Shown piece after piece: positions 17,203 through 44,057 of a stretch of 64,000 nucleotides of DNA. Below the pieces are notes generated by a model, which saw only the letters and a program-made list of their open reading frames with translations, was not told where the DNA came from and ran no database searches. Source of the DNA: Candidatus Kaiserbacteria bacterium (lineage in GTDB: Bacteria > Patescibacteriota > Minisyncoccia > Phycocordibacterales > UBA918). The position numbers and the translations under genes were made by a program. The stretch is from the NCBI GenBank assembly GCA_016699245.1, contig CP064968.1, positions 15,654 to 79,653 on the forward strand. Reading direction: 5' to 3'. Position 1 is the stretch's first letter, and every line of letters begins with the position of its first letter.

Positions 17203-17208
17203 ACTAAA

Positions 17209-21947: not shown

Positions 21948-22259
21948 TTATCCCAGAGCCAAGTCCCGCACATACTGCGATACAGAATCGTACCCTTTTT
22001 CAATCGCTCTTTTTTCAATACGCGCCTTATCTGCTCCTGACACACGAAAACGAATGACGTCTGACTGTTTCCGCCCATACTCTTGTTCGGCAATAATTAG
22101 ATTAGGTAGATCGAGAATGACCGATGATAAATCTTCCTCAAGAAACTCTTGATCAATACATGCGCCTTTCGCAATAAAATGCACTGTCCCTGACTTTGTT
22201 TTTTCAAGCGTATAGGGATATATTTTATTTTTTATAGTTATACTTGCTTTTGTTTTCAT
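21948..22259 (-). CDS. hicB: HicB-like antitoxin (N-terminal HicB fold + C-terminal ribbon-helix-helix)
   Basis: The C-terminus IRFRVSGADKARIEKRAIEKGYDSVSQYVRDLAL is RHH-like. The start ATG overlaps the hicA TGA stop (ATGA coupling). Confidence 0.45.
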   Translation of the reverse strand: MKTKASITIKNKIYPYTLEKTKSGTVHFIAKGACIDQEFLEEDLSSVILDLPNLIIAEQEYGRKQSDVIRFRVSGADKARIEKRAIEKGYDSVSQYVRDLALG

Positions 22260-22504
22260 ATATTTCTTTTTATGAATACTTGTATCTGAGTGCGTATCTG
22301 CTGCTTGTAGAAATTTTTACACTCATTGTTGTGTACGGGGACAATAATATCGTGTTGTAACTGCGAGTGTTTCCACTTTACGTGACTGCCTTTTGCATAT
22401 ATTTTCTCAAAACCAACGTAAATAAGGATTTTTTCGATATCTGCATAACGAACATTCTGTGGTGAATGGTCAAACTTTTGAAGCAGTTTTTCAATCTGAC
22501 TCAT
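22256..22504 (-). CDS. hicA: HicA-like mRNA interferase toxin
   Basis: MSQIEKLLQKFDHSP...GFEKIYAKGSHVKWKHSQLQHDIIVPVH...KQQIRTQIQ matches the HicA pattern (GF..GSH..H...PVH). The internal ATG at 22504 is preferred over the longer ORF with a hydrophobic leader. Confidence 0.55.
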   Translation of the reverse strand: MSQIEKLLQKFDHSPQNVRYADIEKILIYVGFEKIYAKGSHVKWKHSQLQHDIIVPVHNNECKNFYKQQIRTQIQVFIKRNI

Positions 22505-22601
22505 TGTAACTACATTATATATAAATGTAGTTACAATGCAAGTATCAAAGCAGTGGTATATAATCAGGAAGGAGATAGAGAAGTATCTCAACTAATAAAT
22601 T

Positions 22602-26014: not shown

Positions 26015-29000
26015 ATGTATTCGTACATGCAACAGTCTGATGCCACAGTGAGTACCTCGCGCGACCAGTTCTTTTTGGAAAGAATAGGTTTTTTCTTTAC
26101 TCAGTGTTTTTTACATGCACGAGGAGTGCATCATAAGAAGGTCTCACTGATTGTTGCATTTGGACTTTTTTTGATAGTGGTTTGTTTTCCTTCGGCAAAG
26201 GCTGAGGCCGCAATTCAATTTGTCGGTTCTACGACTGCATCGGGCGATAATGCCGCATACAATCTCTCCCTCACCGGACTCACGGGGGGTATCTCGAGTA
26301 CTGCAGCACAGGATGATTTTGTTGTTGTGGTAAATACATACGTTGGTACTGCAGATGGTAATCCTGGCGTCGGCACAGCGGGCTATACAGAAATGGCCGA
26401 TTTGTATGCAAATAATAACAGAGACGTTAATTTCTCAGTGAATTATAAGTTTATGACGGCGACTCCCGATACAACAGTTTCTTGTAACGGGAGTGCAACG
26501 GCCGGTAGTGCATCGACCTGCCTCGCGATGGTTTTTCGGGGTGTGGATCTCACGACGCCGATGGATGTCGCATCGACGACGGCAACCAGTAACACTACAG
26601 AAGACGTTGATTGTCCCGCAATAACCCCCGTCACCAGTGGATCGTACGTACTCTGTACAGGAGGGGGTGCGGGAGCAAATGTCGACGCTGCGATTCCTGC
26701 AATTGCAGGGTACGCTCATGCATATCTGCAGTTTGATTCCACCAACTACACTTCTGCATCAGTTGGTGCGTATAAGGCATGGACATCAGGCGCCGAAGAT
26801 CCTGCAGCATTTGTTATGGACTTAGGTACACAGGCGAACAATTCAATGGCGGCACTCACTATGGCATTACGTGAACAACGCACCGTCTCCCTCTCCTCCG
26901 CCTCCAACCAAGTCTTTTCATACGCGCAAGCAACGACCACCATCAGCACCATCACCATTACCGATAACGTGGGCGCATCGGTCACCGCAGCAAACGACAT
27001 CCGCATCCGCATCGCCTCTACCTCCCTCACCATGAAGTGGGACACCACCGACACCACCGCCACCTTTGGCGGTACCGCCTCGGGCAAAGTATCAAACCCC
27101 GTCTCCTACGAAAACAATGGCACGACACTCGTAATACCTGTAGACACCAACTTTAGTGCAGGAGAGACACTCACGGTGAGTGGACTCTCCTTCACCCAGT
27201 TCCTCGGCACCAGTACCGCAACCACGGGGCTCAACATGTACCTCGCGGGAGGAAGTGACGCCGTGAGTGATGGTGCTGATGATAAGACGATAGTTATCTA
27301 TTCCGCCTTGCCCACCCTCACCACTCCCACCGCCACCGCCATTAGTTCCACTACCGCAACCCTCGGTGGCACCATCGTAAGTAACGGTGGGGGACTGACC
27401 GCCCGTGGTACCTGCTGGGGCACGACCCCATCCCCCGTCACCAACTGTGTTGCAGAAGGCGGTACAGGAACGGGTGTCTTCACGCAGGCACGCACCGGCC
27501 TTTCGCAGGCCACCTTCATCTACGCCCGTGCCTATGCCACAAACGCTACCGGCACCGCATACTCAAGTGACACCCTCTTCCTCACCGAAGGCACCTTCGT
27601 ACCGGGTACGGAGAATGTCACCGCAGTGGGAACGAGTACTGCAACGATAGGGGGGACGATCTTAGGTTCTTTCTCGACTTTTACGACTGCAACAGATACG
27701 CCAGAGGCAAACATAAAAGCCCTCACCGTTGACTCCGTAAATGGTGTTCTCTACGCAGGGTCAGATACGAATGGATACATCTACCGCTGTCTCCTTTCTA
27801 CAGGGTGTGACTCCACTGGAGATTTCACTATTGTATATGACACTGCGTCTACAGATATGTTCGCACTCACTATTGCGAGTAGTACTTTGTATGTAGCAGC
27901 AATAACAGGTGCAGGTTTTGGCACCATCCACCGATGCCTCCTCTCCACGGGGTGTGACGCTTCGGGTGATTTTACAGAAGTGCTTAGTAGTCCTGTTGAC
28001 TTCTTTTATTCGTTCACCGTTGATTCTGTTAACGGTGTCCTTTACGTAGGAGGAAGTTATGCTGGTACCCAGGAGTCTATCCATCGATGCCTCCTCTCCA
28101 CGGGATGTGAAGACTGGGGTGACTTCTCACAAGCGTATAGCACGTTTGTAAGTCAAAAAATTATCTCCCTGACCATCGCAAGTAGCACCCTCTACGCAGG
28201 AACGGACACAGAAGGTATTATCTACCGATGCCTCCTCTCTACAGACTGTGACGCTACGGTAGATTACACAACTGCTTTCGACACCACAGAAACAAAAATT
28301 CTTTCTCTCGCGTTTGACTCAGTTAACGGCGTCCTCCATGTAGGGACAAGTCCGAACGGCATCTTTTACCCATGTCTCCTCACCACGGGGTGTGACGCCT
28401 CGGGTGATTTTAATAGTCCCGCGAACACGGCCGATGACGAAATATACTCCATCATATTTTCAAGCACCACACGCTACGCAGCCACGGGTCCTCGTGGAGT
28501 CATCTACGCATGTTTCCTCCCCACGGGGTGTGATGGCCTCGGCGCCTTCACCACCGCAACAGACACCCCTGCGACCGCTATCTACGCTCTCGCCATCGAC
28601 TCCGCAAATAATGCGCTCTACGCAGGCTCGGGCGCAGACGGCATCATATACAAAAGCGAAATAGGTCCCGCATACCCCATCACCGAACGTGGCACCTGCT
28701 GGGGAACCAGCCCATCCCCCGTCACCAATTGCCTTGCCACCTCAGGGACGAGTACCGGCGCCTTCACCCATGCACGTACTGGTCTTCCGAGTGGCACTCT
28801 CATCTACGCGCGCGCGTATGTTACCTATGCATCAGGCACCGCATACTCAGCTGACATAAGTACCACCACTCTTAGTGTGCCACCAACCACCCTCTCCTCC
28901 GCCTCCAACCAAGTCTTTTCATACGCGCAAGCAACGACCACCATCAGCACCATCACCATTACCGATAACGTGGGCGCATCGGTCACCGCAGCAAACGACA

Positions 29001-29650
29001 TCCGCATCCGCATCGCCTCTACCTCCCTCACCATGAAGTGGGACACCACCGACACCACCGCCACCTTTGGCGGTACCGCCTCGGGCAAAGTATCAAACCC
29101 CGTCTCCTACGAAAACAATGGCACGACACTCGTAATACCTGTAGACACCAACTTTAGTGCAGGAGAGACACTCACGGTGAGTGGACTCTCCTTCACCCAG
29201 TTCCTCGGCACCAGTACCGCAACCACGGGGCTCAACATGTACCTCGCGGGAGGAAGTGACGCCGTGAGTGATGGTGCTGATGATAAGACGATAGTTATCT
29301 ATTCCGCCTTGCCCACCCTCACCACTCCCACCGCCACCGCCATTAGTTCCACTACCGCAACCCTCGGTGGCACCATCGTAAGTAACGGTGGGGGACTGAC
29401 CGCCCGTGGTACCTGCTGGGGCACGACCCCATCCCCGTCACCAACTGTGTTGCAGAAGGCGGTACAGGAACGGGTGTCTTCACGCAGGCACGCACCGGCC
29501 TTTCGCAGGCCACCTTCATCTACGCCCGTGCCTATGCCACAAACGCTACCGGCACCGCATACTCAAGTGACACCCTCTTCCTCACCGAAGGCACCTTCGT
29601 ACCGGGTACGGAGAATGTCACCGCAGTGGGAACGAGTACTGCAACGATAG
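26015..29650 (+). CDS. Giant secreted repeat protein, 5' segment (about 1140 aa in frame before a 1-nt homopolymer deletion)
   Basis: N-terminal signal/TM (KKVSLIVAFGLFLIVVCFPSAKAEAA). Contains FN3-like modules (TCWGT.PSPVTNC...GTGTG.FT.ARTGL...IYARAYATNA.GTAYS) and ~45-aa YRCLLSTGCD...GDFT repeats. An 874-bp segment (26891-27764) is duplicated perfectly at 28892-29763 except for C5->C4 at 29432-29436 and G6->G5 at 29650-29654. The ORF ends at a TAG created by the frameshift. Confidence 0.75.
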   Translation: MYSYMQQSDATVSTSRDQFFLERIGFFFTQCFLHARGVHHKKVSLIVAFGLFLIVVCFPSAKAEAAIQFVGSTTASGDNAAYNLSLTGLTGGISSTAAQDDFVVVVNTYVGTADGNPGVGTAGYTEMADLYANNNRDVNFSVNYKFMTATPDTTVSCNGSATAGSASTCLAMVFRGVDLTTPMDVASTTATSNTTEDVDCPAITPVTSGSYVLCTGGGAGANVDAAIPAIAGYAHAYLQFDSTNYTSASVGAYKAWTSGAEDPAAFVMDLGTQANNSMAALTMALREQRTVSLSSASNQVFSYAQATTTISTITITDNVGASVTAANDIRIRIASTSLTMKWDTTDTTATFGGTASGKVSNPVSYENNGTTLVIPVDTNFSAGETLTVSGLSFTQFLGTSTATTGLNMYLAGGSDAVSDGADDKTIVIYSALPTLTTPTATAISSTTATLGGTIVSNGGGLTARGTCWGTTPSPVTNCVAEGGTGTGVFTQARTGLSQATFIYARAYATNATGTAYSSDTLFLTEGTFVPGTENVTAVGTSTATIGGTILGSFSTFTTATDTPEANIKALTVDSVNGVLYAGSDTNGYIYRCLLSTGCDSTGDFTIVYDTASTDMFALTIASSTLYVAAITGAGFGTIHRCLLSTGCDASGDFTEVLSSPVDFFYSFTVDSVNGVLYVGGSYAGTQESIHRCLLSTGCEDWGDFSQAYSTFVSQKIISLTIASSTLYAGTDTEGIIYRCLLSTDCDATVDYTTAFDTTETKILSLAFDSVNGVLHVGTSPNGIFYPCLLTTGCDASGDFNSPANTADDEIYSIIFSSTTRYAATGPRGVIYACFLPTGCDGLGAFTTATDTPATAIYALAIDSANNALYAGSGADGIIYKSEIGPAYPITERGTCWGTSPSPVTNCLATSGTSTGAFTHARTGLPSGTLIYARAYVTYASGTAYSADISTTTLSVPPTTLSSASNQVFSYAQATTTISTITITDNVGASVTAANDIRIRIASTSLTMKWDTTDTTATFGGTASGKVSNPVSYENNGTTLVIPVDTNFSAGETLTVSGLSFTQFLGTSTATTGLNMYLAGGSDAVSDGADDKTIVIYSALPTLTTPTATAISSTTATLGGTIVSNGGGLTARGTCWGTTPSPSPTVLQKAVQERVSSRRHAPAFRRPPSSTPVPMPQTLPAPHTQVTPSSSPKAPSYRVRRMSPQWERVLQR

Positions 29651-29654
29651 GGGG

Positions 29655-32600
29655 ACGATCTTAGGTTCTTTCTCGACTTTTACGACTGCAACAGATACGC
29701 CAGAGGCAAACATAAAAGCCCTCACCGTTGACTCCGTAAATGGTGTTCTCTACGCAGGGTCAGGAGGTAGTGGCATCATCTACCGCTGTCTCCTTTCTAC
29801 AGGGTGTGATTCCACAGGAGACTTCGTTATTGCGTATGACACTACACATTCAAATATCTCCTCTCTTGCCATTGCGAGTAGTACTCTGTTTGTTAACGGC
29901 TTTACAAGCACAGACAATACTGTTGTGTACCGCTGTCTCCTCTCCACGGGGTGTGACGCCTCGGGTGATTTTACGACTGCATGGACACCATCTTCTCCTC
30001 AATCAAGCCGTACATTAGTTGCAGATTCAGTAAACAACATACTCTACATGGGGGGTCAAGATAATTCAGATCAATTTACAATTTATCGATGTGCCCTTTC
30101 TTCGGGATGTGACTTCCAGACTGACTTCACGACTGCATATGCACCTGCCGCACAGATAGACGTCCATTCCCTCACCATTGCCAGTAGCACGCTCTACGCA
30201 GGCTCGGGTAATGGTGGTAATATTTACCGCTGTCTCCTCTCCACGGGGTGTGATGCTGATGTGGATTTTACCCTTGCATACAACACCACAGAATCGCAGA
30301 TTTATTCCCTCACGAGTGACTCAGCTAATGGTGTTCTGTATGTAGGGACGAGCCCGAACGGCATCATCTACCGATGCCTTCTCACGACAGGTTGTGACGC
30401 CTCGGGTGACTTCACGACGGCAACAGACACCCCACAGACAGATATCTACGCTCTCACCATCTCAAGTAGCACCCTCTACGCAGGCACGGGCGCAAACGGT
30501 GTCATATATCAGTGCCTCACCTCCACAGGCTGTGATTCTACAAATGACTTCACCACCGCAACAGACACTCCCGCTACCACTATAAACGCTCTCGTCATCG
30601 ATTTCGCGAATAGTTCTATTTACGCAGGCTCCGGTGCTACGGGTATCATATACAAAACCAGTATAGGTTCCGCATACCCCATCACCGAACGTGGCACCTG
30701 CTGGGGCACGAGTCCCAACCCCGTCACCAACTGCCTTGCCACCTCAGGGACAAGTACTGGTGCCTTCACCCATGCACGCACTGGCCTTCCCCAGGCTACC
30801 CTCATCTACGCTCGAGCGTATGTTACCTACGCATCAGGCACCGCATACTCAGCCGACGTAAGCACTACCACCCTCGGCGTCGCAGCACCCACCCTCTCCT
30901 CAGGAGCCAACCAAGCCTTTTTCTATGGTCAAGCAACCACCACCATAAGTACCATCACCATTACCGACACTCCTGGCGGACTCGTCACCGCAGCAAACGA
31001 CATCCGCATCCGCATCGCCTCTACCTCCCTCACCATGAAGTGGGACACCACCGACACCACCGCCACCTTTGGCGGTACCGCCTCGGCCAAAGTATCAAAC
31101 CCTGTCTCCTACGAAAACAACGGCACCACACTTGTGATTCCTGTTGACACCAACTTTGGAACAGGGGACACCCTCACCATAGACGGACTTTCTTTTTCAC
31201 AGTTCCTTGGGGTGAGTACCGCCACCATCGGGCTCAACATATACCTCGCGGGGGCAAGTGACGCCGTGAGTGATGATGCCGATGATAAGACGATGAGTAT
31301 TAGTTCCACCACCCCTACCGTTACCACCCCCACTACCACTGCTATAGGCCTTAATAGTGCAACTCTCGGCGCTACCATTACGAGTGACGGTGGGGGAACA
31401 CTGAGTGCGCGCGGTACCTGCTGGGGCACCAGCGCATCCCCCGTCACCAACTGTACCGCAGAAGGCGGTACGGGAACGGGTGTCTTTACGCAGGCACGCA
31501 CCGGTATGGCGACGGGTACTCTCTACTACTATCGTGGATATGCGACAAATGCCTCGGGTACGACATATTCGGCAGATGGTACCTTTAGCACCAATGCTGT
31601 TCCCGTACTCACTACTCCCACTGCTACTGCCGTGGGTTCAAGTACCGCTACCCTCGGTGCTACCCTTGTTTCCACAGGTACCAACACTATTAATGCTCGC
31701 GGTACCTGCTGGGACACGAATTCGTCTCCCACCATCAACTGTCTTGCAGAAGGTGGTACGGGAACAGGTGCTTTCACGCAGGCACGTACAGGTCTGACAG
31801 CGGGCACACTGTACTACTATCGTGGGTATACGACATATACTGACGGTGCAAGTGTCACCCGTACCGCATATTCAGCAGATGGCACATTTGTAAGTTCAAC
31901 CACCCCTACACTCACCACCCCCACCGTTACTGCCGTCAGTTTTACAACCGCAACATTCGGCGCCAATATCACGAGTGACGGCGGAGCACCACTGAGTGCC
32001 CGTGGTACCTGCTGGGGCACCAGTGCGTCCCCGGTGACCAACTGTCTTGCAGAAGGCGGTACGGGAACGGGTGTCTTTACGCAGGCACGCACCGGTCTCC
32101 CCCAGGGCACACTCATTTACGCCCGCGCATACGCAACAAACGCATACGGTACTTCATACTCAGCCGATATAAGTACTACCACCAGCATCTCCACGAGTGA
32201 TCTCATCATCTCCGGTACCCTCTATAGCGACGAAGGGGTCACCACGATAAACGGAGGGAAGACCATTGCTCTCGCTATCGGCACCACCACCCCCTCAGTC
32301 CACACCACTACCTCCAATGGTTCTGGCGTATGGACTGCTACCATCCCCACCGGCCACACCATCGGCACCTCTACCCCTATCCTCGCTTGGGTAGATAATG
32401 ACGGCACCACCCGTGCCGCACTCCTCACGAAGGCAACATCCACCTCTAATATCTCTGGCCTTAGTCTCTATAAAGATAGAGTGATTGTGTCGCATGAGGC
32501 AACAAGTGGTACCTCAACGACACTCACTGACATGTCCTTCTATGACAACGACAACGACAGTGACATTCAATACAATGCGACAACAACAAGCGCAGGGCTT

Positions 32601-35600
32601 GTATTAAACGCTGGCAACGAACTCCATATCCAAACAGGGAAGTCCTTCACTCCCCTAGGCGCCGTCACCATACAGGGGAACGCCGGCACCGGCACCGATG
32701 GTTCACTTCACCTTCCTGCAAGTAGCATCTACACCGCAGGAGGCACCACCACCCTTGCCGGCAATTTCACCGCATCATCCTCCGCAACCTTTACCCCTGG
32801 CACCCACACCCTCACCTTTAATGCAACGACCACCGGAAAGAGTATTGATGTACCACTCGCTACCCTTGGTAACACCACCTTCAATGGAGCAGGTGGTGCA
32901 TGGGCGTTTGCATCAGCAGCCACCACCTCAGCCCTTACCATCACCGCCGGCACCCTAACTGCTCCCGCCACCAGTCTTACCATCCTCGGTAACTACCAGA
33001 ACAGTGGCACCTTCACTCACAACAACGCCACGGTCACCATCGCCTCCACCACCGCCGCACAGGGTATCATGGGTACTGCCACCGGTACGTCGGCCTTCAG
33101 TACGCTCCGCATCATCGGTGCTACCACCACTGCTCCAACATCAGGCCTCGTCGGTAAATGGATGTTTGAGGAGGGAAGTGGCACGACGGTGCGGGATGCG
33201 AGTGGGGGTGGGAATACGGGGACGCTCAATGGAACTCCTTCTTGGATTTCTGAGAATAGGGGTAAGGCAATTTCGCTCAATGGAACAACAGATTATGTAG
33301 CTATTCCTAACTTGATACAGACTCATCGTAGTGACATTACTATCGCCACGTGGTTCAAGACGACCACAACGGGTGTAATTGCGGGATATCAAGCTGGTAT
33401 GGTGGGAAGTGGTCCCAGTAGTTATGTTCCCGCTATCTATATCGGTACCGATAATAAAATTTACGCTCAACTATGGGATGGTGCGACACACCCAATCACA
33501 ACTTCCGGAACGTATACCGACGGTGCTTGGCACCATGTTGCGCTCGCAGTCTCAGGCGGTAATAGCCAATCCCTCTACGTTGACGGTTCGTTTGTGGGGA
33601 TTCTCAGTAATGCAATTACTGATTTTGGTGCAACCTATTCGCAGTTTGGTGCTGGGTACACCACAGGGTGGACCAACGCGTCTGGTGGGTTGACTTATTT
33701 TGCTGGTTCTCTTGATGATAATCGAATCTACAACCGCGCGCTCACCGCGAACGAAATCAGCGACCTCTATAACGAACGTCCAAAAGTCTTCTCACAAAAC
33801 GCCTCTACCACCAACCTCATCATTGAATCCGGTGTCGTGTCCGCACCACCATCTCTGAGTATCGCCGGCGACTACCAGAACGCAGGCGCCTTCCTCGCGA
33901 ACGCCGGCACCACCACCTTCAACGGCACCACCACCTTTAGTGGCGTGAGCGCCCAGACCCTCGGTGGCACCATGACGGGCGCAAGCGCCTTTGGAAACGT
34001 GGAGTTTACCGGCGGAGGACTCAAGTCTTTTGCGACGACGACTACGAATGCAAGTACATCTAATTTTATGGTGGATGCCGGCGCGACGGTCGTCGCGCCG
34101 GAAAACCTCTCCGTCTCTGGTCAATACACCAACAACGGCACGTCCTCAAACCCAGGAGGGAAGGTGTGGACCAGCCGCACCGCCGCCGCCTACAACATCT
34201 GGCAATCCGTCACCTACGGCAATGGTCTCTTTGTGGCGGTGTCTGGTACTGGCGCTGGCACAATCAACGACCGCGTCATGACTTCCCCTGACGGAATCAC
34301 CTGGACCCCCCGCACCGCCGCTACCAATAACTACTGGTACTCCGTCACCTACGGCAACGGCCTCTTTGTGGCAGTGGCTGGTTCCGGCACCATAAGCGAC
34401 AAAGTCATGACTTCCCCTGACGGCATCACCTGGACCCCTCGCACCGCCGCCGCTGACAACACCTGGCGCTCCGTCACCTACGGCAATGGGGTCTTCGTGG
34501 CGGTGTCTGGTACTGGTGCCGGCACCATCAACGACCGCGTCATGACTTCCCCTGACGGCATCACCTGGACCCCTCGCACCGCCGCCGCCAACAACTCTTG
34601 GTGGTCCGTCACCTACGGCAATGGCCTCTTTGTGGCGGTGGCTGAGACTGGCACCATCAACGACCGCGTCATGACCTCCCCCGACGGCATCAACTGGACT
34701 GCCCAGACCGCCGCTGCCAACAACAACTGGGTCTCCGTCACCTACGGCAATGGCCTCTTTGTGGCAGTGGCTTTTTCTGGCACCATCAATGACCGCGTCA
34801 TGACCAGCCCCGACGGCATCACCTGGACCCCCCGCACCGTTGTCGCCAACAACACCTGGGTCTCCGTCACCTACGGCAATGGCCTCTTTGTGGCGGTGTC
34901 TGGTACTGGAGCTGGTACCGTGAACAACCGCGTCATGACCTCCCCCGACGGCATCAACTGGACCGCCCAGACCGCCGCCGCCAATAACGAATGGGTCTCC
35001 GTCACCTACGGCAATGGCCTCTTTGTGGCGGTGGCGTACTCTGGTTTCAATCGCGTCATGACAAGCGCGGTCGGTACCACCACCTTTAGTGGCGTGAGCG
35101 CCCAAACCCTCAATGGCACCATGACCGGCGCGAGCGCCTTCGGCAACGTCGCCTTTACCAACACCAGCGCTACCACCACCTTTGCAAGTAACGCGAGCAC
35201 CTCTAATTTCACCACTGCATCAAACACAATCGTCGTTGCTCCATCCAGCCTTTCTCTTTCCGGAGACTACACAAACAACGGCCGTTTCGTCGCCGGCACC
35301 GGCACCACCACCTTTAATGGCAATACGACACAGACCGCCACCGGCACCATGACGGGTACGAGTGCGTTTAGCAACCTCACTATTACGAACAGTGTCGCCT
35401 CCACCACCTTTGTTACTCCACTGACGGTAAGTGGCAAATTCACTGCCACGACCCCCGGCACTATCATCATCCTCAGTTCACAGGGCACCACCACCTTCGC
35501 TACTGCAGGAATCATTGGTAGCAGTACAGAGAGCATCACTCTCCGCGCCACCACCCCTGGCACGCAAGCACCCCTTGATATAGAGGGCACATACACTCTT

Positions 35601-38600
35601 TCGTATATAAACGTCAAAGATTCCAATGCCTGTGATAACGCCATTGCCCTCAGTGGTACCGGTCTCACCGACAGTGGCAATAACACGTGTTGGACTTTTG
35701 CCTCAGGTTCAGTGATTGTACTTTCCGGTATCCTCTATAGCGACGAAGGGACAACACCTATTACCGCGCCAAAGACATTGGGTATCATGGTGGGTACATC
35801 GACACTGAGTCTCCATAGTACGACCTCTGCAGCATCAGGTGCTTGGAGTTTTACCGTACCTGCAGGGCATACCATTGTTCAGGGGACTCCTATTCTCGTC
35901 TGGGTAGACAATGACGGTTCTACGCGGGCGTCGCTCGTCACCAAAGCAGATTCATCATCCGCCGATATATCAGGACTTAATCTGTATCAAAATAGGGTGA
36001 TTGTCTCGCATGAGGGTGCTGAAGCCATCACGCTCTTAGCTATGACTCGGTATAATAATAGTGATGATGCTGATATTCAGTTTGAAGCGGTTGATGCTGA
36101 GGGATATATAGGACAAATCTTTTCAGGGAACAAATTGTATATCAATGCAGGGAAAACATTTTCTCCTGATGGAGAGTTAACCATAGGTGCCAACGCCAGT
36201 TCCTCAAGTGTCGATGGTGCCCTCCACATAGCGAGTGGTGCTACATATAAGCAAATGATGCCAAATAATAATTGGACCTATATCGGAGGTTCACTCACTG
36301 CATCATCTACGGCAACTATCATAAATAATGGTACATTTCAATTCACTGCGTCTACCACGGGGAAGAGTATTAACGCCACTCAGCCACTTGGTAAGGTCAC
36401 TTTCGCAAACACCGCGAGCATGTCCTTTGCCACGAGTGCCACGACAACCAACCTCACTATCAACGCAGGTGCGTCGGTTGTTGCACCCGCTAGCACGCTC
36501 ACGATTCTTGGTGACTATACCAACAACGGCACCTTTACCCACAATGGGGGTACGATACTCTTCGCAAGCACCACACAGGCACAGTTTTTGCGTGGTACGC
36601 TCTCGGGTACCTCTGCCTTTGGTACACTTAGTTCTGTGGGTAATACGACCACCTCTCCATCTGGACTCATAGGGAAGTGGAACCTCGATGAAGGATCGGG
36701 GACAGAAGCATACGATTCATCGGGAAATGGTAATACCGGTACGCTCACCAATGGTCCAACCTGGAAAGCAGGTAAAGTCGGCCAGGCCGTTGATCTTGGT
36801 GGAGATGATGATTATATCAATGTGGGGTCTCCAGCGTCGCTCGATGATGTCACCCAAAAAACCATCACCGCATGGATAAATCCGGTTACCCTTGGTGATA
36901 GTGATTATGGGCGAATCGCTGATAAAGATGCAGGCACAGCGACTGGGTGGTTGTTTTATGTGTCGAACGGAGACAATGTGAGTAGTTTGCGCTTTGGACA
37001 TTATTTTGCAGGAGGTCTTGGTTTTTGGAATACTGGAAACAACACTATTACTACCGGAGGGAACACATGGCAACATGTCGCGGTGACCTACGACAACAGT
37101 TCGGCAAGCAATGATCCAGTCTTTTACATAAACGGTGTATTGAGTCCTCTTGCGTTTGACACTAATAATTCGGGTGCAGCGAATAGTGATGCGGCACACA
37201 ACCTCTGGTTCGGAGACCGTGCGGGGAATGATCGTTCTTTCAATGGAGACATGGACGATATCCGTATGTACAATCGAATTCTTACCGCCGGAGAAATCGC
37301 TACGATATACAATGAACGTCCAAAGTTTATCAATGCGAATGCTTCGACCACCAATCTCTCGATAGACTCGGGCGTGGTAGCCCTGTCATCAACCAGCCTC
37401 TCTATTGCGGGTAACTACACCAACTCGGGCACCCTCGCAGTAACGGGCACCACGACCTTTAACGGCAATACGACACAGACCGCCACCGGCACCATGACCG
37501 GCTCAAGTGCATTTAAGAACGTGGAAATACTCAATACGTCTGCTCCTACTATCTTCGGCGCACCCTTTGCCGTCACCGGCCACTTCAAGGCAACGTCGCC
37601 AAGTATTAGTATGAAGTTTGCAGAAAACGCTACCACATCCCTCAATACCGCTACCCTGTATGGTACCTCAGGCAACAAGGTACAACTTCGCTCAACGACT
37701 GAGGGGACACGTTTTGGTATTGAAATAAGTGGTGCATATGATATTTCGTACGTTGATGTGAAGGATAGTAGTGGCTCCACAACGCTCGGCAATATCACCG
37801 CCACCACATCAGTGGATTCAGGTAATAATAATAGATGGACTTTTATCGCTGATCCCGTACCATCCCTCTCCTCCGCCTCCAACCAGTCCTTCTACTACTC
37901 TGAACCCACCACCACGATAAGTACCCTGACCATCACCGACACCCCCGGCGGACTTGTCACCGCCACAAACGACATCCGCATCCGCATCGCCTCTACCTCT
38001 CTCACCATGAAGTGGGACACCACCGACACCACCGCCACCTTTGGCGGTACCGCCTCGGGCAAAGTATCAAACCCCGTCTCATACGAAAACAACGGCACGA
38101 CACTCGTAATACCTGTTTCGAATGACTTTAGCGCCGCAGACACCCTCACCGTAGACGGGCTTTCTTTCACCCAGTTCCTCGGGGTGAGTACCGCTACCAC
38201 TGGACTCAACATATACCTCGGTGGCGCAAGTGACGCCGTGAGTGACGATGCAGACGATAAGACGATGAGCATCAGTGGACTCGGAACCCTCTTGAATCAC
38301 ACGAGTGGCCAAGTGAGTGACAATATCAATTCCACCACAGAGACAGGCATCCCACTCTTTGCCTTCAATCTCTCTTCAGTGGGTGAAAACAGCACCATTT
38401 CAAACCTCACCCTCCGTATCACGGGAGCCAATGGAGTGAGTACCGGTGACCTCTCAAACTTCGCACTCTACCGTGACAACAACAACAGCAAGACATTCGA
38501 CGCAGGAGATACCGCCGTGGGCGGTTCCCCAAGTGTTACCCTCACGGGTGACAACGGCACCGTGACCTTTAGCACACCATTCAGTGCAACCTCCACCGCA

Positions 38601-39377
38601 CGCAACTATGTACTCGTAGGCTCCGTAGACAATGTACGCGTGACCGAGGGCTTCACACTCAACCTGAGTGCCATCGACGTAGCACTCACCGGAGACACCA
38701 CCGGTCTCACCACGCTCCTCAGCACGCTCTCTGGTGTACAACACATGAGAGGGGGCGGTGGTGGCAGTAGTGGTGGCGGAGTACACGCCGGTATTGGGGG
38801 TGCACCTCCAGCGGGTGACGGAATACGTGGCGGTGGCGGAGGTGGTGGAGGAGGTGGCGTCGACCCCGACAGTGGCACCCCGATAGGCAATGAACCCGGC
38901 TTCAATGCACCAAGTGGGCAGGGTAGCCCACAGGGTGGATGGACGAATGGTACGAATGTATACACCTCAAATGGTGTGTACACGACGACGAGTGGCAATG
39001 GCTCGCGCCATACCTTCACCACCTTTGGATTTGATGTACCACTCAACAACACCATAGTGGGTGTTGAGGTAAAGGTAGAGGCATCGGGCAGTACGGCAGC
39101 AGGGACTATCTCAATAGGGCTCTCCTGGAATAACGGCTCAACACTCACCTCACTGAAGACCACGAGCACCCTCGGACTCACCGACACGGTGTTCGTTCTC
39201 GGAGGATCATCGGACAATTGGGGTCGCACCTGGACTCCCCTCGAATTCGCAAACGGTAGTTTTGCAATTGAAATTATTGGCAATACCTCTGCAAACACCC
39301 TCTCTGTGGATGCCATACAAGCAAAGGTATACCACCAAGCCACGGGCGGTGGCGGTGGTGGTGGCGGGGCGATTTAG
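29655..39377 (+). CDS. Giant secreted repeat protein, 3' segment (about 3240 aa) with two LamG/concanavalin-like domains, propeller-like repeats and a Gly-rich tail
   Basis: The frame of the 29925 (GTG) ORF is homologous and open back to 29655, directly after the G-tract. Contents: YRCLLSTGCD repeats x8; FN3-like modules x6; LamG_3-like domains at 33140-33780 and 36660-37330 (LVGKWMFEEGSGTT..D.SG.GNTGTL...TDY..I...I...ITIA.W.K....W.HVA...........LYV.G........IYNR.LTA.EI..LYNE); eight tandem 40-aa VWTSRTAA..N.W.SVTYGNGLFVAV.G.G...DRVMTSPDGI.WT repeats (34150-35050); a ~3.5-kb internal duplication; Gly-rich C-terminus. Stop TAG at 39375. Confidence 0.8.
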   Translation, partial: TILGSFSTFTTATDTPEANIKALTVDSVNGVLYAGSGGSGIIYRCLLSTGCDSTGDFVIAYDTTHSNISSLAIASSTLFVNGFTSTDNTVVYRCLLSTGCDASGDFTTAWTPSSPQSSRTLVADSVNNILYMGGQDNSDQFTIYRCALSSGCDFQTDFTTAYAPAAQIDVHSLTIASSTLYAGSGNGGNIYRCLLSTGCDADVDFTLAYNTTESQIYSLTSDSANGVLYVGTSPNGIIYRCLLTTGCDASGDFTTATDTPQTDIYALTISSSTLYAGTGANGVIYQCLTSTGCDSTNDFTTATDTPATTINALVIDFANSSIYAGSGATGIIYKTSIGSAYPITERGTCWGTSPNPVTNCLATSGTSTGAFTHARTGLPQATLIYARAYVTYASGTAYSADVSTTTLGVAAPTLSSGANQAFFYGQATTTISTITITDTPGGLVTAANDIRIRIASTSLTMKWDTTDTTATFGGTASAKVSNPVSYENNGTTLVIPVDTNFGTGDTLTIDGLSFSQFLGVSTATIGLNIYLAGASDAVSDDADDKTMSISSTTPTVTTPTTTAIGLNSATLGATITSDGGGTLSARGTCWGTSASPVTNCTAEGGTGTGVFTQARTGMATGTLYYYRGYATNASGTTYSADGTFSTNAVPVLTTPTATAVGSSTATLGATLVSTGTNTINARGTCWDTNSSPTINCLAEGGTGTGAFTQARTGLTAGTLYYYRGYTTYTDGASVTRTAYSADGTFVSSTTPTLTTPTVTAVSFTTATFGANITSDGGAPLSARGTCWGTSASPVTNCLAEGGTGTGVFTQARTGLPQGTLIYARAYATNAYGTSYSADISTTTSISTSDLIISGTLYSDEGVTTINGGKTIALAIGTTTPSVHTTTSNGSGVWTATIPTGHTIGTSTPILAWVDNDGTTRAALLTKATSTSNISGLSLYKDRVIVSHEATSGTSTTLTDMSFYDNDNDSDIQYNATTTSAGLVLNAGNELHIQTGKSFTPLGAVTIQGNAGTGTDGSLHLPASSIYTAGGTTTLAGNFTASSSATFTPGTHTLTFNATTTGKSIDVPLATLGNTTFNGAGGAWAFASAATTSALTITAGTLTAPATSLTILGNYQNSGTFTHNNATVTIASTTAAQGIMGTATGTSAFSTLRIIGATTTAPTSGLVGKWMFEEGSGTTVRDASGGGNTGTLNGTPSWISENRGKAISLNGTTDYVAIPNLIQTHRSDITIATWFKTTTTGVIAGYQAGMVGSGPSSYVPAIYIGTDNKIYAQLWDGATHPITTSGTYTDGAWHHVALAVSGGNSQSLYVDGSFVGILSNAITDFGATYSQFGAGYTTGWTNASGGLTYFAGSLDDNRIYNRALTANEISDLYNERPKVFSQNASTTNLIIESGVVSAPPSLSIAGDYQNAGAFLANAGTTTFNGTTTFSGVSAQTLGGTMTGASAFGNVEFTGGGLKSFATTTTNASTSNFMVDAGATVVAPENLSVSGQYTNNGTSSNPGGKVWTSRTAAAYNIWQSVTYGNGLFVAVSGTGAGTINDRVMTSPDGITWTPRTAATNNYWYSVTYGNGLFVAVAGSGTISDKVMTSPDGITWTPRTAAADNTWRSVTYGNGVFVAVSGTGAGTINDRVMTSPDGITWTPRTAAANNSWWSVTYGNGLFVAVAETGTINDRVMTSPDGINWTAQTAAANNNWVSVTYGNGLFVAVAFSGTINDRVMTSPDGITWTPRTVVANNTWVSVTYGNGLFVAVSGTGAGTVNNRVMTSPDGINWTAQTAAANNEWVSVTYGNGLFVAVAYSGFNRVMTSAVGTTTFSGVSAQTLNGTMTGASAFGNVAFTNTSATTTFASNASTSNFTTASNTIVVAPSSLSLSGDYTNNGRFVAGTGTTTFNGNTTQTATGTMTGTSAFSNLTITNSVASTTFVTPLTVSGKFTATTPGTIIILSSQGTTTFATAGIIGSSTESITLRATTPGTQAPLDIEGTYTLSYINVKDSNACDNAIALSGTGLTDSGNNTCWTFASGSVIVLSGILYSDEGTTPITAPKTLGIMVGTSTLSLHSTTSAASGAWSFTVPAGHTIVQGTPILVWVDNDGSTRASLVTKADSSSADISGLNLYQNRVIVSHEGAEAITLLAMTRYNNSDDADIQFEAVDAEGYIGQIFSGNKLYINAGKTFSPDGELTIGANASSSSVDGALHIASGATYKQMMPNNNWTYIGGSLTASSTATIINNGTFQFTASTTGKSINATQPLGKVTFANTASMSFATSATTTNLTINAGASVVAPASTLTILGDYTNNGTFTHNGGTILFASTTQAQFLRGTLSGTSAFGTLSSVGNTTTSPSGLIGKWNLDEGSGTEAYDSSGNGNTGTLTNGPTWKAGKVGQAVDLGGDDDYINVGSPASLDDVTQKTITAWINPVTLGDSDYGRIADKDAGTATGWLFYVSNGDNVSSLRFGHYFAGGLGFWNTGNNTITTGGNTWQHVAVTYDNSSASNDPVFYINGVLSPLAFDTNNSGAANSDAAHNLWFGDRAGNDRSFNGDMDDIRMYNRILTAGEIATIYNERPKFINANASTTNLSIDSGVVALSSTSLSIAGNYTNSGTLAVTGTTTFNGNTTQTATGTMTGSSAFKNVEILNTSAPTIFGAPFAVTGHFKATSPSISMKFAENATTSLNTATLYGTSGNKVQLRSTTEGTRFGIEISGAYDISYVDVKDSSGSTTLGNITATTSVDSGNNNRWTFIADPVPSLSSASNQSFYYSEPTTTISTLTITDTPGGLVTATNDIRIRIASTSLTMKWDTTDTTATFGGTASGKVSNPVSYENNGTTLVIPVSNDFSAADTLTVDGLSFTQFLGVSTATTGLNIYLGGASDAVSDDADDKTMSISGLGTLLNHTSGQVSDNINSTTETGIPLFAFNLSSVGENSTISNLTLRITGANGVSTGDLSNFALYRDNNNSKTFDAGDTAVGGSPSVTLTGDNGTVTFSTPFSATSTARNYVLVGSVDNVRVTEGFTLNLSAIDVALTGDTTGLTTLLSTLSGVQHMRGGGGGSSGGGVHAGIGGAPPAGDGIRGGGGGGGGGGVDPDSGTPIGNEPGFNAPSGQGSPQGGWTNGTNVYTSNGVYTTTSGNGSRHTFTTFGFDVPLNNTIVGVEVKVEASGSTAAGTISIGLSWNNGSTLTSLKTTSTLGLTDTVFVLGGSSDNWGRTWTPLEFANGSFAIEIIGNTSANTLSVDAIQAKVYHQATGGGGGGGGAI

Positions 39378-39400
39378 AAAAGAGAAATAAAATTGATAAA

Positions 39401-39435
39401 ATGACGGACATCGGATGTCCGTCATTGTCCGTCAT
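39401..39435. repeat. REP-like palindrome copy 2 (plus 10-bp partial tandem duplication TGTCCGTCAT)
   Basis: ATGACGGACATCGGATGTCCGTCAT-TGTCCGTCAT, 24 bp after the giant-gene stop and downstream of the RAYT gene end. Confidence 0.7.
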
Positions 39436-39463
39436 TTTTGTATGCTTCACACGCGCACACGCA

Positions 39464-40138
39464 TTACTCAAGGGTTACACCATCAAGGTGAAGTATGTTA
39501 AATTTTTTGAGGTGCGACTGAAATGCTTTTGTATAGCCTGCTGAGCCTCCAAAATATTTGAGAAAAAATGTTCGGTCAGTAACTGAACCAAAATTACTTT
39601 TGCCACTGTAGTCGAGATGACTACTCCATTTGTATTTTGAAAGTAATTCCTCGACGTGTTGTGCAGAAGGAATTTCTCCCTCGCGCCATTTTGGTGTGGT
39701 GAGGTCAAGTGGATTGAGGTGAATATAAAAGGGGAGATACATGAAGTGTGCATCTGAGGTGATACGTATGGATTTGTACTTACCTTGAAAGAGTCCACCA
39801 GAGCGTTCATATCGCTCATTAAAATACTTTGCGTACCCCATATTTATCTTTTTCATAAAGAGAGACACCCCACCTTCAACGAGAGGGGAGAGCATGAGGT
39901 GGTAGTGGTTTGGCATGAGACAAAAGAAGTGTATCTGCACCAGCCGTTCACCTTCACCTGCTAATGACGGACATCGGATGTCCGTCATTTTTGTGTTTCG
40001 TCGATGGTTGGTGTCGCTTCTTCCTTGAACGTTAAACGTATATAAATCATGAATAAATCTGGCATAATCCCTTGAATCAAGGAATATCGTACGCTTCTCA
40101 ACTCCTCTGTTGAGTACGTGAAAAAACTCTGTATGCAT
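39464..40138 (-). mobile_element. REP-associated tyrosine transposase (RAYT; IS200/IS605-like Y1 HuH transposase) gene
   Basis: 224 aa with FFHVLNRGVEKRTIF, the HuH motif (LMPNHYHLML), the catalytic-Tyr region (GLFQGKYKSIRI) and YIHLNP...WSSH, all matching the RayT/COG1943 pattern. The gene is flanked on both sides by the 25-bp palindrome and carries one copy in-frame inside the ORF. Confidence 0.75.
39964..39988. repeat. REP-like palindrome copy 3, located inside the RAYT coding sequence
   Basis: A perfect ATGACGGACATCGGATGTCCGTCAT copy. On the minus strand it is translated in-frame as ..KMTDIRCPSL.. within a ~25-aa segment absent from typical RAYT homologues (between the FL..L helix and the HuH motif). 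Confidence 0.65.
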
Positions 40139-40150
40139 ACTGATATTCTA

Positions 40151-40186
40151 ACACACATGACGGACATCCGATGTCCGTCATGTGTG
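40151..40186. repeat. REP-like palindrome copy 4 (extended: ACACACATGACGGACATCCGATGTCCGTCATGTGTGT)
   Basis: An extended 37-bp palindrome with one central mismatch, lying exactly between the dnaE stop (40187-40189) and the RAYT start (40138). Confidence 0.65.
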
Positions 40187-43100
40187 TTACTCTTGGGGGA
40201 TGGGGGTGTTCGGGTCGAGGGCTTTTATGCGGTCTATGACAACGGTGGGCTCTTCGTTTCTCATTGAGAGTTTGCCTGAGACTGCTACACAGGAGCCTAC
40301 GACGAATAGGTCGTGGTGCGTTTTGTATGTCTCGGGGAAAGCAACAAGTTCGATAGTCTCGCTTCCGTCTCCAACCAAAATAAAACCCATCTTGTCACCT
40401 TTCTTCGTGAGAATTTCGTGGATGCTTTCCACCATACCTGCGGTCACTATGGGTATGCCATTGCGGGTCTCCTTCTTAATGACACCAATTTTTGGCCGTT
40501 TTGCGAGTTCATCTTTGTATGCATCAAGGGGGTGCCCCGAGACATACACACCGAGTAATTCTTTTTCCCATACGAGTTTCTCTGCTTTACCTGCAGGCTC
40601 TGCTGGCTCCAAGATGAGTGCGTGGATGTCCGCAGTACCAAACGCGCCAAAGAGGGATTCTTGGGAAGATTCTTTGTGACTACTATGTTCCTTGTGATAG
40701 GTAAGCATGGTTTCCACATTGTGAAGAAGCATCCCGCGCTCATGAAAGCGGTCGAATGAGCCCGACATAATAAGTGCCTCAAGTGATTTTTTGTTGAGGT
40801 TTTTGCTTGTGACGCGGGTAAGGAAATCTTGGAGGGATGTGTAGGGGCCATGTTCTTTGCGCTCGTCAATGATGGATTCGGCGATGCCTTCGCCGAAGTT
40901 TTTAATGGTTGTTAGTCCAAAACGTATGCGTGCTTTTTTGTCACGTTGAACAGGCACTACCGAGAAGGGCCCAAAACTTTCGTTGATGTCGGGTGGAAGC
41001 ACTTCGATACCCATGCGCACACACTCTGCGATAATCTCAGATATTTTCTCGGTATCACCCGCATCGGCGGTGAGTACTGCTGACATGTATTCTTCGGGAT
41101 AATTAGCCTTCATGTATGCAGTTTGATAGGCGACACGTCCATAACTTGCTGCATGGGCTTTGTTGAAGCCGTACGCGGCAAATGGCTCAATGAGTTTCCA
41201 CAGTTTGTCTGCAAGCGATGCACTCAATTTTCCATATTCCACAAAGCCTTTGAGGAGCTTTTCTTTCTCCGCCTCCATTACCGCAGGAATCTTTTTACCC
41301 ATCGCTTTACGAAGCATGTCAGCCTCGAGCCACGAGTAGCCCGCGAGTTCTCGTGCAATCATCATGACGTCGTCCTGGTAGGTAATCACCCCGTAGGAAC
41401 GGTCGAGGATTTTTTCCAATCGTGGGTCAAGATAGGAAACGAGATTTGCATTATGCTTCCGCTCAACATACTGCGGAATAGATTCCATCGGCCCAGGGCG
41501 GTAGAGTGCCACCATCGCATTGATGTCGTGAATGGTGGAAGGACGGAGTTGCTTGAGGAATGCAGTCATGCCTGTTCCGTTTAACTGGAATAGTCCCATA
41601 GTCTCACCACGCGCGAGCATCTCGAAGGTTTTGGTGTCAGTGACGGGAATGTTTTCAATATCTACTTCTATGTCACGAATTTTCTCGACGCGCTTCACTG
41701 CGTCTGCAAGTATGGAAAGATTTTTGATACCGAGAAAGTCGAACTTGAGGAGGCCGACACCATCTTCACCTACAGAATGCATCTCGTACTGGGTGATGAG
41801 TTTGCCACTTTTTGGGTCGGGCTGTACGGGTACAAATTCGGTGAGTGGGGCGGGCGCAATCACCACTCCTGCAGCATGCACACCGACATGGCGCACCCGC
41901 CCCTCAATTTGTTTTGCCAAATCAATCACCTCTTTTGTGTCGGGGTCTTTTGCATAGAGGGCTTTGAGATCGGGCTCGATTTCCATCGCATTTTCAATAG
42001 TCATGGGGAAGCCTTGGCTACCCATAGGGATGAGTTTTGCAATACGGTCGCCGATGGCGTACGGGTGGCCAAGGGCACGAGCCACGTCACGTACGGCAGC
42101 GCGTGCCATCATCGTTCCAAAGGTACCAATCTGTGCGACGTTTTCTTCGCCATACTTTTCACGCGCATACGCAATGATTTCGTCTCGTCTGTTGTCGGCG
42201 TAGTCCATGTCGATATCAGGTGCAGAAGGGCGCTCGGGGTTGAGGAAACGTTCAAAGGGAAGATTGTACTCAAGGGGATTTACATTCGTAATCCCGAGCA
42301 CGTACGTGGTGAGCGAGCCCGCCACCGATCCTCGAATGGTGGTGAGGATTTTGCGTTCGCGTGCCTCACGAAGGAGGTCCCCCACAACGAGAAAGTACTT
42401 TGCGTAGCCTTTCATTTTAATAACACCGAGCTCGTAGTCGAGGCGTTCCATAACAGCGTTGTCCTCACGTGAAAGCCCGCGCCACGCAATGCCCGCATAT
42501 GCCATGTCATGGAGTTCGACGTCAGGCTCTTTGCCGCTTTCGATTTTATAGTCAGGGAAATACCATGTCGCACCCGGAGTCATCGTGACGTTACACGCTT
42601 CGGCGATTGTAATGGTGTTTGCGAGTGCCTCCTTTTCCGCCTCACGTACAAAAAGTTCTTGTGCACGTTCACTCGAAATAAACGAGAAGTTTGGCGCAAG
42701 TTCACCTTCCTTGTCCTGTGTCTCTACCACACCACCGCTTTGAATCTTTATCATCGTCTCGCGCGCGAGGTAGTCACGTTGCTCAAGATAGTAGACGTCG
42801 TGTGCAGCGACGAGAGGTGTGTTAGTCCTCTCGGCAAGCGCAAGAATACTTCTTTGGAGGGCTTCGTGGCCGTCTATCTCGGGATGATGGGTAATTTCTA
42901 AATAGCAATCGTCACCAAATATGCTTTTGTACCAATCAAGCGAGGCTTCAGCCTGCTCGATGAAATTGTCCTTGAGTGAAAGTACGGGCTCGCCGCTAAA
43001 TGAGGGAATGATGCAGATGAGGTCTTTGTGAAATTCTTCGATGAGTGCATGGTCGATGCGGGGTTTGTAGTAGAAACCGTTGACGTAGGATTCGGTCACT

Positions 43101-43435: not shown

Positions 43436-43450
43436 AGTGGGACTATTGTA

Positions 43451-44057
43451 TAGTAGTAGCGTGAAAAAGAGAATCGTACATATTATTGGAGTCGATGAAG
43501 CCGGTAGGGGTCCATTAGCGGGGCCTGTAGCGGTTGGTGCGGTGCTTGTACCCGTAGATTTTAACTGGGCGCATATTCCGGGAGTGGGGGATTCGAAGAA
43601 AGTAAAGGCGGAAAATCGCGAAGCGATTTTCCGCCTTGCCGCACGTCTTCGTAAAGAGGAAGCCCTTAATTTTGCTACCGCACTCATACCCGCATCGACC
43701 ATCGACAAAATCGGTATTACGCACGCGGTACAAAAGGGAATTGTGAAATGTCTGGCGACCCTTGATGCTTCCCCTAAAACCACCATGATTCTTCTCGATG
43801 GACTTCTCCACGCACCCTCTGAATACATACACCAGGAGACTATTATAAAAGGAGATGCAAAAGAGAAGGTTATTGGACTCGCCTCTATTTGTGCGAAGGT
43901 CACACGCGATGCACACATGGTGCGTGTTGCGCGCAAACACCCTGAATATCTCTTTGATATCCACAAAGGCTATGGAACCAAAAAGCATATTGAGGCAATC
44001 CTCACTCATGGCCTCTCCCCAATCCATCGCCGTTCCTTCACCAAGAGATTCCAGTAG
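43451..44057 (+). CDS. rnhB: Ribonuclease HII
   Basis: IIGVDEAGRGPLAGPVAVGAVLV (DEAGRG active-site motif) and ...DSKK... are present. GTG start at 43451, divergent from dnaE. Confidence 0.85.

Follow-up and report, generated by a model that had tools for sequence, protein, structure and literature searches.

How ultrasmall Patescibacteria recognize and attach to their partners is, to our knowledge, largely unknown outside Saccharibacteria. Giant proteins have been described in Vampirococcus lugosii, a member of the candidate phyla radiation (CPR), where the ten longest proteins are giant membrane proteins of 1,392–4,163 aa with WD40, PKD, DUF11, integrin, and fibronectin domains and a proposed role in host recognition (PMC8080830). 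The SPEARE proteins of Nanohaloarchaeota, found in an ultrasmall symbiont, reach 8,553 aa, are mostly extracellular, and carry at least one laminin-G domain together with other adhesion domains (PMC6642349). Here, we analyze a giant gene on the plus strand of a 64,000-nt stretch (the window, to which all coordinates refer) of contig CP064968.1 from assembly GCA_016699245.1. A preliminary description of this DNA had linked proteins of this kind to small-genome episymbiotic bacteria, and the source is indeed of small genome, a metagenome-assembled genome (MAG) of Candidatus Kaiserbacteria, also of the CPR, with a contig of 1,054,716 bp. The gene (26015..39377) represents a costly investment, because it takes up approximately 1.3% of this ~1.05-Mb genome. 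The best explanation overall, which we consider probable on balance, is that a single Kaiserbacteria gene, artefactually split in the database, encodes a giant exported modular adhesive fiber.

Continuity of the Giant Gene

In the deposited sequence, an open reading frame (ORF) of 1,211 aa (26015–29650) comes first; behind it, another frame runs without a stop between 29655 and 39377, and its first start codon (GTG 29925) gives a product of 3,150 aa. The GenBank annotation lists two hypothetical proteins, QQR64990.1 (IPH92_00190, 1,207 aa) and QQR64991.1 (IPH92_00195, 3,150 aa). The preliminary description had read three consecutive ORF pieces, homologous across their junctions, as one protein, and this was borne out, as insertion of one C and one G repairs two 1-bp homopolymer deletions and yields a single ORF of 4,454 aa with no internal stops. 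DNA self-comparison revealed a 2.0-kb tandem duplication in the 5' third of the gene (26889–28889 and 28890–30890), with D1, FN3-like, and propeller modules (described below) in each copy. Within it, an 876-bp stretch of the first copy (26889..27764) is 100% identical to 28890–29763 except for two indels, which are the two frameshifts. At frameshift 1 (29429..29433), the second copy has C4 where the identical upstream copy has C5 (27428–27432), and at frameshift 2 (29650..29654), it has G5 where the upstream copy has G6 (27650–27655). Both deletions fall in homopolymers of the second copy, with not one substitution between the copies in 874 bp, and the 217-nt bridge between the two sites, read in a third frame, yields a peptide identical to that of the first copy. 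The 9.7 kb downstream of the frameshifts stays open and homologous, and a frame that is uninterrupted for more than 3,000 codons and has conserved homologs is far above what would be expected by chance. A related giant gene in another assembly (L002), which we counted in favor of continuity, is one intact ORF of 2,409 aa.

Two homopolymeric indels with zero substitutions are the signature of consensus error rather than of decay, and a perfect repeat of 876 bp would make short-read polishing ambiguous at the error sites. A second gene in the window is informative in this respect. The frame of rpoC (61092–64000+, plus strand) changes three times within ~600 bp, near 62760, 63087 (A4 run), and 63346 (G4 run), before the original frame is regained, such that an essential gene is broken by 1-bp indels. 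The assembly therefore holds uncorrected indels, and because rpoC carries them in the same window, the breaks in the giant gene are most likely assembly errors. We consider it very likely that this is one gene, split by a sequencing artifact. If so, the locus can serve as a worked example of how long-read homopolymer errors split a giant, repeat-rich gene into two GenBank “hypothetical proteins.”

Real frameshifts would instead leave either a recent pseudogene or two genes, one encoding a 1,211-aa secreted protein and the other a leaderless 3,150-aa remnant. This would agree with the deposited sequence and the submitted annotation, both of which give two proteins, and no independent sequence of the junction turned up in the collections that we scanned. 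For example, the exact pattern of the second junction had no match in the JGI metagenomes, whether it was written with G5 or with G6, and a protein scan of the same metagenomes returned FN3-like modules only (48–64% identity), with no ortholog across the junction. However, a separate second “gene” would start partway through a propeller blade without a signal peptide, neither the lack of substitutions beside the two homopolymer indels nor the open 9.7 kb fits decay, and the three frameshifts of rpoC demonstrate that this assembly is error-prone, all of which makes real frameshifts quite unlikely. Another reading takes the homopolymer tracts as a phase-variation switch, in which slipped-strand mispairing would switch the product from the full-length fiber to a truncated form of 1.2 kaa and back. 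Two homopolymeric breaks in a surface-protein gene are the classic setting for a contingency locus. However, the tracts of well-established contingency loci mostly measure at least 7 nt, whereas those found here are short (C4–5 and G5–6), restoration of the frame would need two simultaneous shifts, and rpoC has similar indels where phase variation is implausible. We find such a switch highly improbable and continue with the repaired gene.

N-Terminus, Predicted Export, and Possible Surface Retention

The repaired protein contains one hydrophobic segment (aa 38–67), which is followed by an AKA/EAA site and upholds the signal peptide that had been noted before. This signal peptide or N-terminal anchor (HHKK-VSLIVAFGLFLIVVCF-PSAKA/EAA) is encoded at 26126..26206 (aa 38–64). 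Next to it is an N-terminal domain (NTD; 26207..26884, aa 65–290). The NTD was found behind a signal sequence in 12 other proteins at 45–61% identity, and its homologs all have an N-terminal segment equivalent to the hydrophobic one; the two of these proteins that are named come from Kaiserbacteria and Yonathbacteria. AlphaFold confidently predicts an all-beta fold for the NTD, to which no solved structure is close, and PDB sequence or profile searches with this domain gave nothing meaningful.

Almost all cysteines (44 of the 46) occur in even numbers within single modules, the exceptions being aa 31 and 57 in the N-terminal leader. Even counts per module suggest disulfides and, hence, an extracellular location. 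The composition is dominated by Thr (17.4%), Gly (11.7%), Ser (10.6%), and Ala (10.6%), which together make up 50% of the protein, while Lys and Arg contribute 3.4%.

Three known routes to the surface were considered and rejected for the giant protein. Sortase anchoring of the LPXTG type does not fit the C-terminus (...VYHQATGGGGGGGGAI), which has no hydrophobic segment. Export as cargo of a type IX secretion system (T9SS) was discarded, as there is no match to PF18962, a domain seen only in the Bacteroidota relatives of the 43-aa-repeat module discussed below. The protein is also not a type IV pilin, as the prepilin methylation motif (PF07963) is absent. The window does encode a sortase (18504–19229, plus strand; Pfam Sortase, E = 4e-16), followed by a 682-aa secreted repeat protein (19481–21529, plus strand). 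Unlike the giant protein, the latter has a C-terminus composed of VPYTG, a hydrophobic helix, and KKKH and is a likely sortase substrate. This sortase and VPYTG-type substrate lie ~5 kb upstream of the giant gene.

Cys-Pair Propellers

The most distinctive modules are built from a 45-aa repeat with the motif YRCLLSTGCD. Sixteen copies had been reported; our count is 14, arranged as two arrays of seven, of which 12 are canonical, with the CxxxxGC motif, and two are degenerate. Every blade has a short C-x5-C loop (CLLSTGCD). The region that contains the first array (aa 1–955) had no Pfam or NCBIfam match at E ≤ 1, whether to WD40, Reg_prop, or other curated repeats, and PDB sequence or profile searches with it gave nothing meaningful. 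These repeats, which have the signature R-C-x-x-S-T-G-C-D, form an undescribed family. An AlphaFold2 model of aa 526–955, built from an 11-sequence alignment, has a propeller core with a pLDDT (predicted local distance difference test) of ~90 and approximately four strands per repeat, which assemble into seven four-stranded blades. When this model was compared with the PDB using Foldseek, 1,096 matches were obtained at E ≤ 1e-3, and the top matches were seven-bladed WD40/YncE propellers (E ~1e-10) with TM-scores, normalized to the target, of 0.65–0.78. The Cys-pair arrays are thus predicted by the model to be seven-bladed beta-propellers. The preliminary description had proposed a propeller fold elsewhere in the protein and had left these repeats unassigned; the fold is confirmed for them by AlphaFold and Foldseek and is only likely for the 43-aa repeats.

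Propeller I (27668–28669) lies between the halves (27590–27667 and 28670–28879) of a split FN3-like module (27590..28879). Propeller II (29667–30668), which is 64% identical to propeller I, is flanked in the same manner by a second split module (29590..30878). When the ~335-aa propeller was deleted in silico, the flanks joined as a complete FN3-like module, identical to its intact neighbor at 54 of 95 positions. The propeller therefore appears to be inserted in an FN3 loop, and each of the two Cys-pair propellers is apparently nested inside an FN3-like module.

43-aa Repeats and LamG Domains

A further array (34158..35066, aa 2716–3018) consists of tandem repeats with the pattern W.SVTYGNGLFVAV...RVMTSPDGI.WT. 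It had been described as eight repeats of 40 aa but contains seven of ~43 aa, and its homologs also have seven; Tandem Repeats Finder (TRF) reported a period of 129 nt and 6.6 copies. The Pfam family EPTP (PF03736) reached 22.8 bits over the whole protein against a cut-off of 21, with no single stretch passing alone. More than 7,000 relatives of the array were found at 55–70% identity, and most of the close ones have precomputed assignments to EPTP. Many relatives carry T9SS sorting domains, that is, they are surface proteins. There was no PDB sequence match for the array. Judging from the repeats and their relatives, the array is likely a seven-bladed beta-propeller. It is a very common module. 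Copies of one ~70-aa stalk repeat (33900–34157 and 35067–35280) flank it on both sides, with 69% identity between aa 2638–2709 and aa 3021–3090, an arrangement that suggests insertion of the array accompanied by duplication of the target.

Two LamG domains were assigned by Pfam, in agreement with the two LamG_3-like lectin domains expected from the preliminary description. Laminin_G_3 (PF13385) matched two stretches with 135.2 bits (cut-off 27.6, E = 2.6e-39), corresponding to LamG1 (33147..33782, aa 2379–2590) and LamG2 (36666..37328, aa 3552–3772), which are 34% identical. Their closest PDB sequence match is 4qvs, an “S-layer domain-containing protein” (E = 1.9e-14). The only NCBIfam match was a sub-threshold one to TafC (LamG), and a PHROGs scan returned nothing meaningful.

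Module Architecture of the Repaired Protein

Behind the NTD, the protein begins with two units (aa 291–1622), each composed of D1, an FN3-like module, and a second FN3-like module that is split by a seven-blade Cys-pair array. A third D1 and three FN3-like modules follow (aa 1628–2052). The D1 module (“SSASNQ...NDIRIRIAS,” ~140 aa) is present in four copies, at 26885..27310, 28886–29311, 30894–31307, and 37863–38273 (the last being aa 3951–4087). It also forms tandem arrays in other proteins, and one of these (P0015) scored above the Pfam cut-off for BppU_IgG, with no single stretch passing alone. Intact copies of the FN3-like “GTCWG” module are located at 27311..27589, 29312–29589, 31341–31595, 31602–31889, and 31932–32168, and a total of seven such modules were counted where at least six had been expected. 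Pfam fn3 (PF00041) did not match the giant protein at E ≤ 1. Among proteins that match the ~90-aa GTCWG module at 45–65% identity, many are precomputed as PF00041 or PF16656.

The central region is a succession of stalk and binding modules. Module A (32181..33146, aa 2057–2378), an uncharacterized module of ~320 aa that ends in Thr/Ser/Asn-rich stalk repeats, is followed by LamG1, module B (33783..34157), whose stalk repeats carry the motif “NASTSNF...SGDYTNNG,” the seven 43-aa repeats, and module C (35067..35708, aa 3019–3232), which together span aa 2057–3232. A second series (aa 3233–3945) consists of A' (35709–36665; 49% identical to A), LamG2, and C' (37329–37847; 47% identical to C). The internal duplication of 3.5 kb in the preliminary description is real as a duplication, but its unit is the A-LamG-C segment of ~715 aa, with a spacing of 1,171 aa and 34–49% identity. 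The first copy has an extra insert of ~430 aa, comprising the stalk-repeat duplication and the 43-aa-repeat array. The A-LamG-C duplication is an old one, with the insertion confined to the first copy.

The C-terminal cassette (38274..39350) comprises module F (38274–38762, aa 4088–4250), a Gly-rich linker (38763–38897, aa 4251–4295), and a tail domain (38898–39350, aa 4296–4446) that ends in ...VYHQATGG before a Gly run. The linker and the G8 C-terminus account for the Gly-rich tail that had been seen before. Modules A, F, and the tail had no Pfam match, and separate PDB profile searches with A and with the tail likewise found none. No Pfam family covers the NTD, A, D1, F, or tail modules, and these could be defined as new families. 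Where it was modeled, the giant protein is predicted to be all-beta.

Relatives and Family Distribution

When the Cys-pair array was used as the query of a word-index search, only 11 proteins were returned; three of them (P0123, P0124, and P0126) have a prepilin N_methyl leader. An exhaustive profile search of 1.84 billion cluster representatives gave 661 matches at E ≤ 1e-3, of which 89 reached E ≤ 1e-30. Many of these relatives are giant (1.9–4.9 kaa). Genomes were scanned for relatives with a single-blade alignment (A2). Named members and loci are labeled Patescibacteria, Microgenomates, Dojkabacteria, Paceibacterota/Paceibacteria, Saccharibacteria, or Kaiserbacteria, with the sole exception of two proteins encoded by a 3-kb contig labeled Bacteroidetes.

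Five giants, P0256 (3,009 aa), P0257 (3,242 aa), P0259 (1,910 aa), P0261 (2,409 aa), and P0297 (2,040 aa), have the Cys-pair propeller in common with the window protein. Giants of this type share the A/B/C stalk modules, D1, F, and the tail cassette with it, at 31–62% identity per module, and the 43-aa-repeat array is additionally found in P0256. As this module set is shared by many giant proteins, these five among them, the earlier statement that this repeat combination matched no recognizable family was too strong. However, the order and number of modules differ from those of the window protein, and none of the giants examined combines the NTD with a pair of LamG domains and the full set of three propellers. 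F and the tail occur together near the C-terminus of at least eight relatives, and in several relatives, propellers are attached at equivalent stalk positions, behind the same stalk motif. The last 670 aa of the intact L002 ORF align with 37338–39350 of the window at 35% identity.

The three pilin-like relatives belong to the same seven-bladed Cys-pair propeller family, with 27–31% identity to aa 526–955 (alignment A1). They are ~500–560 aa long, and their prepilin N_methyl leader would place them on display at a pilus. In the window protein, by contrast, the leader is of the Sec type and the propeller is apparently nested in FN3-like modules.

The genomic context also differs. At three loci of Patescibacteria relatives (L001, 14484–18984; L002, 10778–15290; L003, 15471–18924), the propeller-bearing giant gene lies upstream of one common run of genes, for a ~255-aa protein, a ~520-aa protein, and GAPDH, whereas the window gene lies between thrS and dnaE; the genes downstream of the L001–L003 giants have no counterpart in the window. 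In L001 and L002, a ~353-aa protein precedes that run, and the 527-aa protein of L002, where Pfam was checked, has FN3-like matches. Elsewhere in L001, from a Paceibacterota MAG, a region matching the Cys-pair blade (8699–13620) contains two ORFs, of 521 and 462 aa, in place of a single giant one and may be another fragmented or decayed member of the family.

Genomic Surroundings

The giant gene is located between thrS (23356–25116, minus strand) and a Y1-transposase-like gene with dnaE (39464–43966, minus strand). The remainder of the window is housekeeping, including pheST, gyrB, rpoBC, smc, rnr, and rpsB, among others. Across the giant gene, G+C rises to 52–57% and GC skew falls to −0.19, which fits the amino-acid bias of the protein. 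Twenty-three nucleotides past the stop codon, a palindromic hairpin followed by a T-run (39400..39441, plus strand), similar to a repetitive extragenic palindromic (REP) sequence, probably terminates transcription.

The 25-nt palindrome in this hairpin (ATGACGGACATCGGATGTCCGTCAT) occurs four times in the window (17208–17234, 39400–39426, 39963–39989, and 40156–40181), and its half-site has seven matches against 0.01 expected. One copy is just past gyrB and one just past the giant gene, and three are around or inside a Y1_Tnp/IS200-like ORF (39464–40138, minus strand; Pfam E = 6e-7). The palindrome looks like a REP element with a transposase of the REP-associated tyrosine transposase (RAYT) type.

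Several other neighbors were observed. A HicA toxin gene (Pfam E = 1.2e-10) adjoins one for a 103-aa partner with a NikA-like (PF21983) C-terminus (21948–22591, minus strand), a probable HicAB-type toxin–antitoxin pair that separates the surface-protein genes from thrS. Just upstream of smc, there are two small genes (46399–46902 and 47174–47668, plus strand) for type IV pilin-like proteins with N_methyl motifs. A 308-aa ORF (44544–45470, plus strand) unusually fuses a NusB domain at the N-terminus to a NUDIX hydrolase domain at the C-terminus; as the assembly is error-prone, an indel could also have run two separate genes together.

Proposed Function and Comparison with Known Systems

For the repaired protein, we infer export, disulfides, a fiber-like shape, adhesion, and host contact. 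The single N-terminal signal or anchor segment would direct export through the Sec pathway, and outside the cell, the protein would form a long modular fiber. Its scaffold would be provided by the immunoglobulin (Ig)/FN3-like modules (D1 and FN3-like) and the Thr/Ser/Asn-rich stalk repeats of A, B, and C. Into this scaffold, binding modules would be plugged, namely the two disulfide-stapled Cys-pair propellers, the probable 43-aa-repeat propeller, and the two lectin-like LamG domains. The end modules would be the conserved part, with the NTD beside the membrane and the cassette of F, Gly-linker, and tail at the far end. Such a fiber would most likely mediate multivalent adhesion to glycans or proteins of a host cell or of another surface, which would complement the type IV pili that, in related organisms, bear the Cys-pair propeller. 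Contact with a host is suggested by the domain content and by analogy with other CPR and DPANN organisms (PMC8080830, PMC6642349).

A fiber of this kind could also be a structural component of the envelope or matrix, such as an S-layer-like coat, a sheath, or a biofilm fiber, rather than an adhesin for host recognition. The closest PDB match of the LamG domains is annotated as an S-layer domain-containing protein, the protein is very repetitive in composition and carries little charge, and the conserved end modules could mediate self-assembly. However, no S-layer homology (SLH) or other S-layer anchoring domain was detected, the order of modules varies among relatives, unlike in lattice-forming proteins, and the lectin-like and propeller modules, including a propeller in common with pilin-like proteins, point to ligand binding. 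We view a purely structural role as rather unlikely. The membership of Laminin_G_3 in the ConA-like lectin/glucanase superfamily and the dependence of CPR bacteria on host-derived material would also be compatible with a secreted enzyme complex, in which the stalk repeats and LamG domains would be catalytic and would degrade polysaccharides or attack cell walls. However, sequence searches of Pfam, NCBIfam, PHROGs, and the PDB revealed no family of glycoside hydrolases, lyases, peptidases, or toxins, which leaves very little probability for an enzymatic role.

Several points weigh against our preferred explanation, a single gene for an exported adhesive fiber. The frameshifts were judged to be errors from the assembled sequence rather than from reads, and the genome and metagenome collections scanned contained no close ortholog across the junction. 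The true start codon is uncertain and may be GTG 26126 instead of ATG 26015 or 26027. No LPXTG motif, C-terminal transmembrane (TM) segment, S-layer homology domain, or T9SS domain was found, and the N-terminal segment is the only recognizable anchor, so the giant protein could be released instead of displayed. The 43-aa repeats and modules A, B, C, D1, F, and the tail were assessed from sequence only, as was the nesting of the propellers, for which the FN3 halves in the AlphaFold model have a pLDDT below 50. Lastly, the role as an adhesin is a prediction from sequence and models, and we know of no demonstrated host for Kaiserbacteria.

The distribution of modules raises a broader possibility, which we put forward tentatively. 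There may be an undescribed, Patescibacteria-centered family of modular “plug-in” surface fibers, in which a conserved scaffold of membrane-proximal NTD, stalk, and F/Gly-linker/tail carries interchangeable receptor-binding inserts (Cys-pair propeller nested in an FN3 loop, 43-aa-repeat array, and LamG) and in which the same propeller is also used on type IV pilins. If this is true, the Cys-pair propeller would be a lineage-specific device of CPR bacteria for recognizing hosts or ligands and a handle for finding those hosts. As a module common to pilin-like and giant proteins of Patescibacteria, it is a concrete candidate for ligand binding.

The window protein resembles the Vampirococcus giants in coming from a small-genome CPR bacterium, in its length of several kiloresidues, and in its combination of beta-propeller, Ig/FN3-type, and adhesion domains. 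It differs from them, as they have been described, in having LamG domains, the Cys-pair propeller, the 43-aa array, and the NTD, A, D1, F, and tail modules, and it had no PKD, DUF11, integrin, or saposin matches. With the SPEARE proteins, it shares giant size and laminin-G domains, of which it has two (Laminin_G_3). We rejected membership in that group, as Pfam and NCBIfam revealed no peptidase or restriction-endonuclease-like domain and there is no C-terminal TM segment, and regard the SPEARE proteins as analogs only. Giant adhesin-like surface proteins have already been described in CPR genomes, and the window protein joins that class. What it adds is a Cys-pair propeller that is almost confined to Patescibacteria and apparently nested in FN3-like modules, an NTD to which no solved structure is close, and a C-terminal cassette that is conserved.

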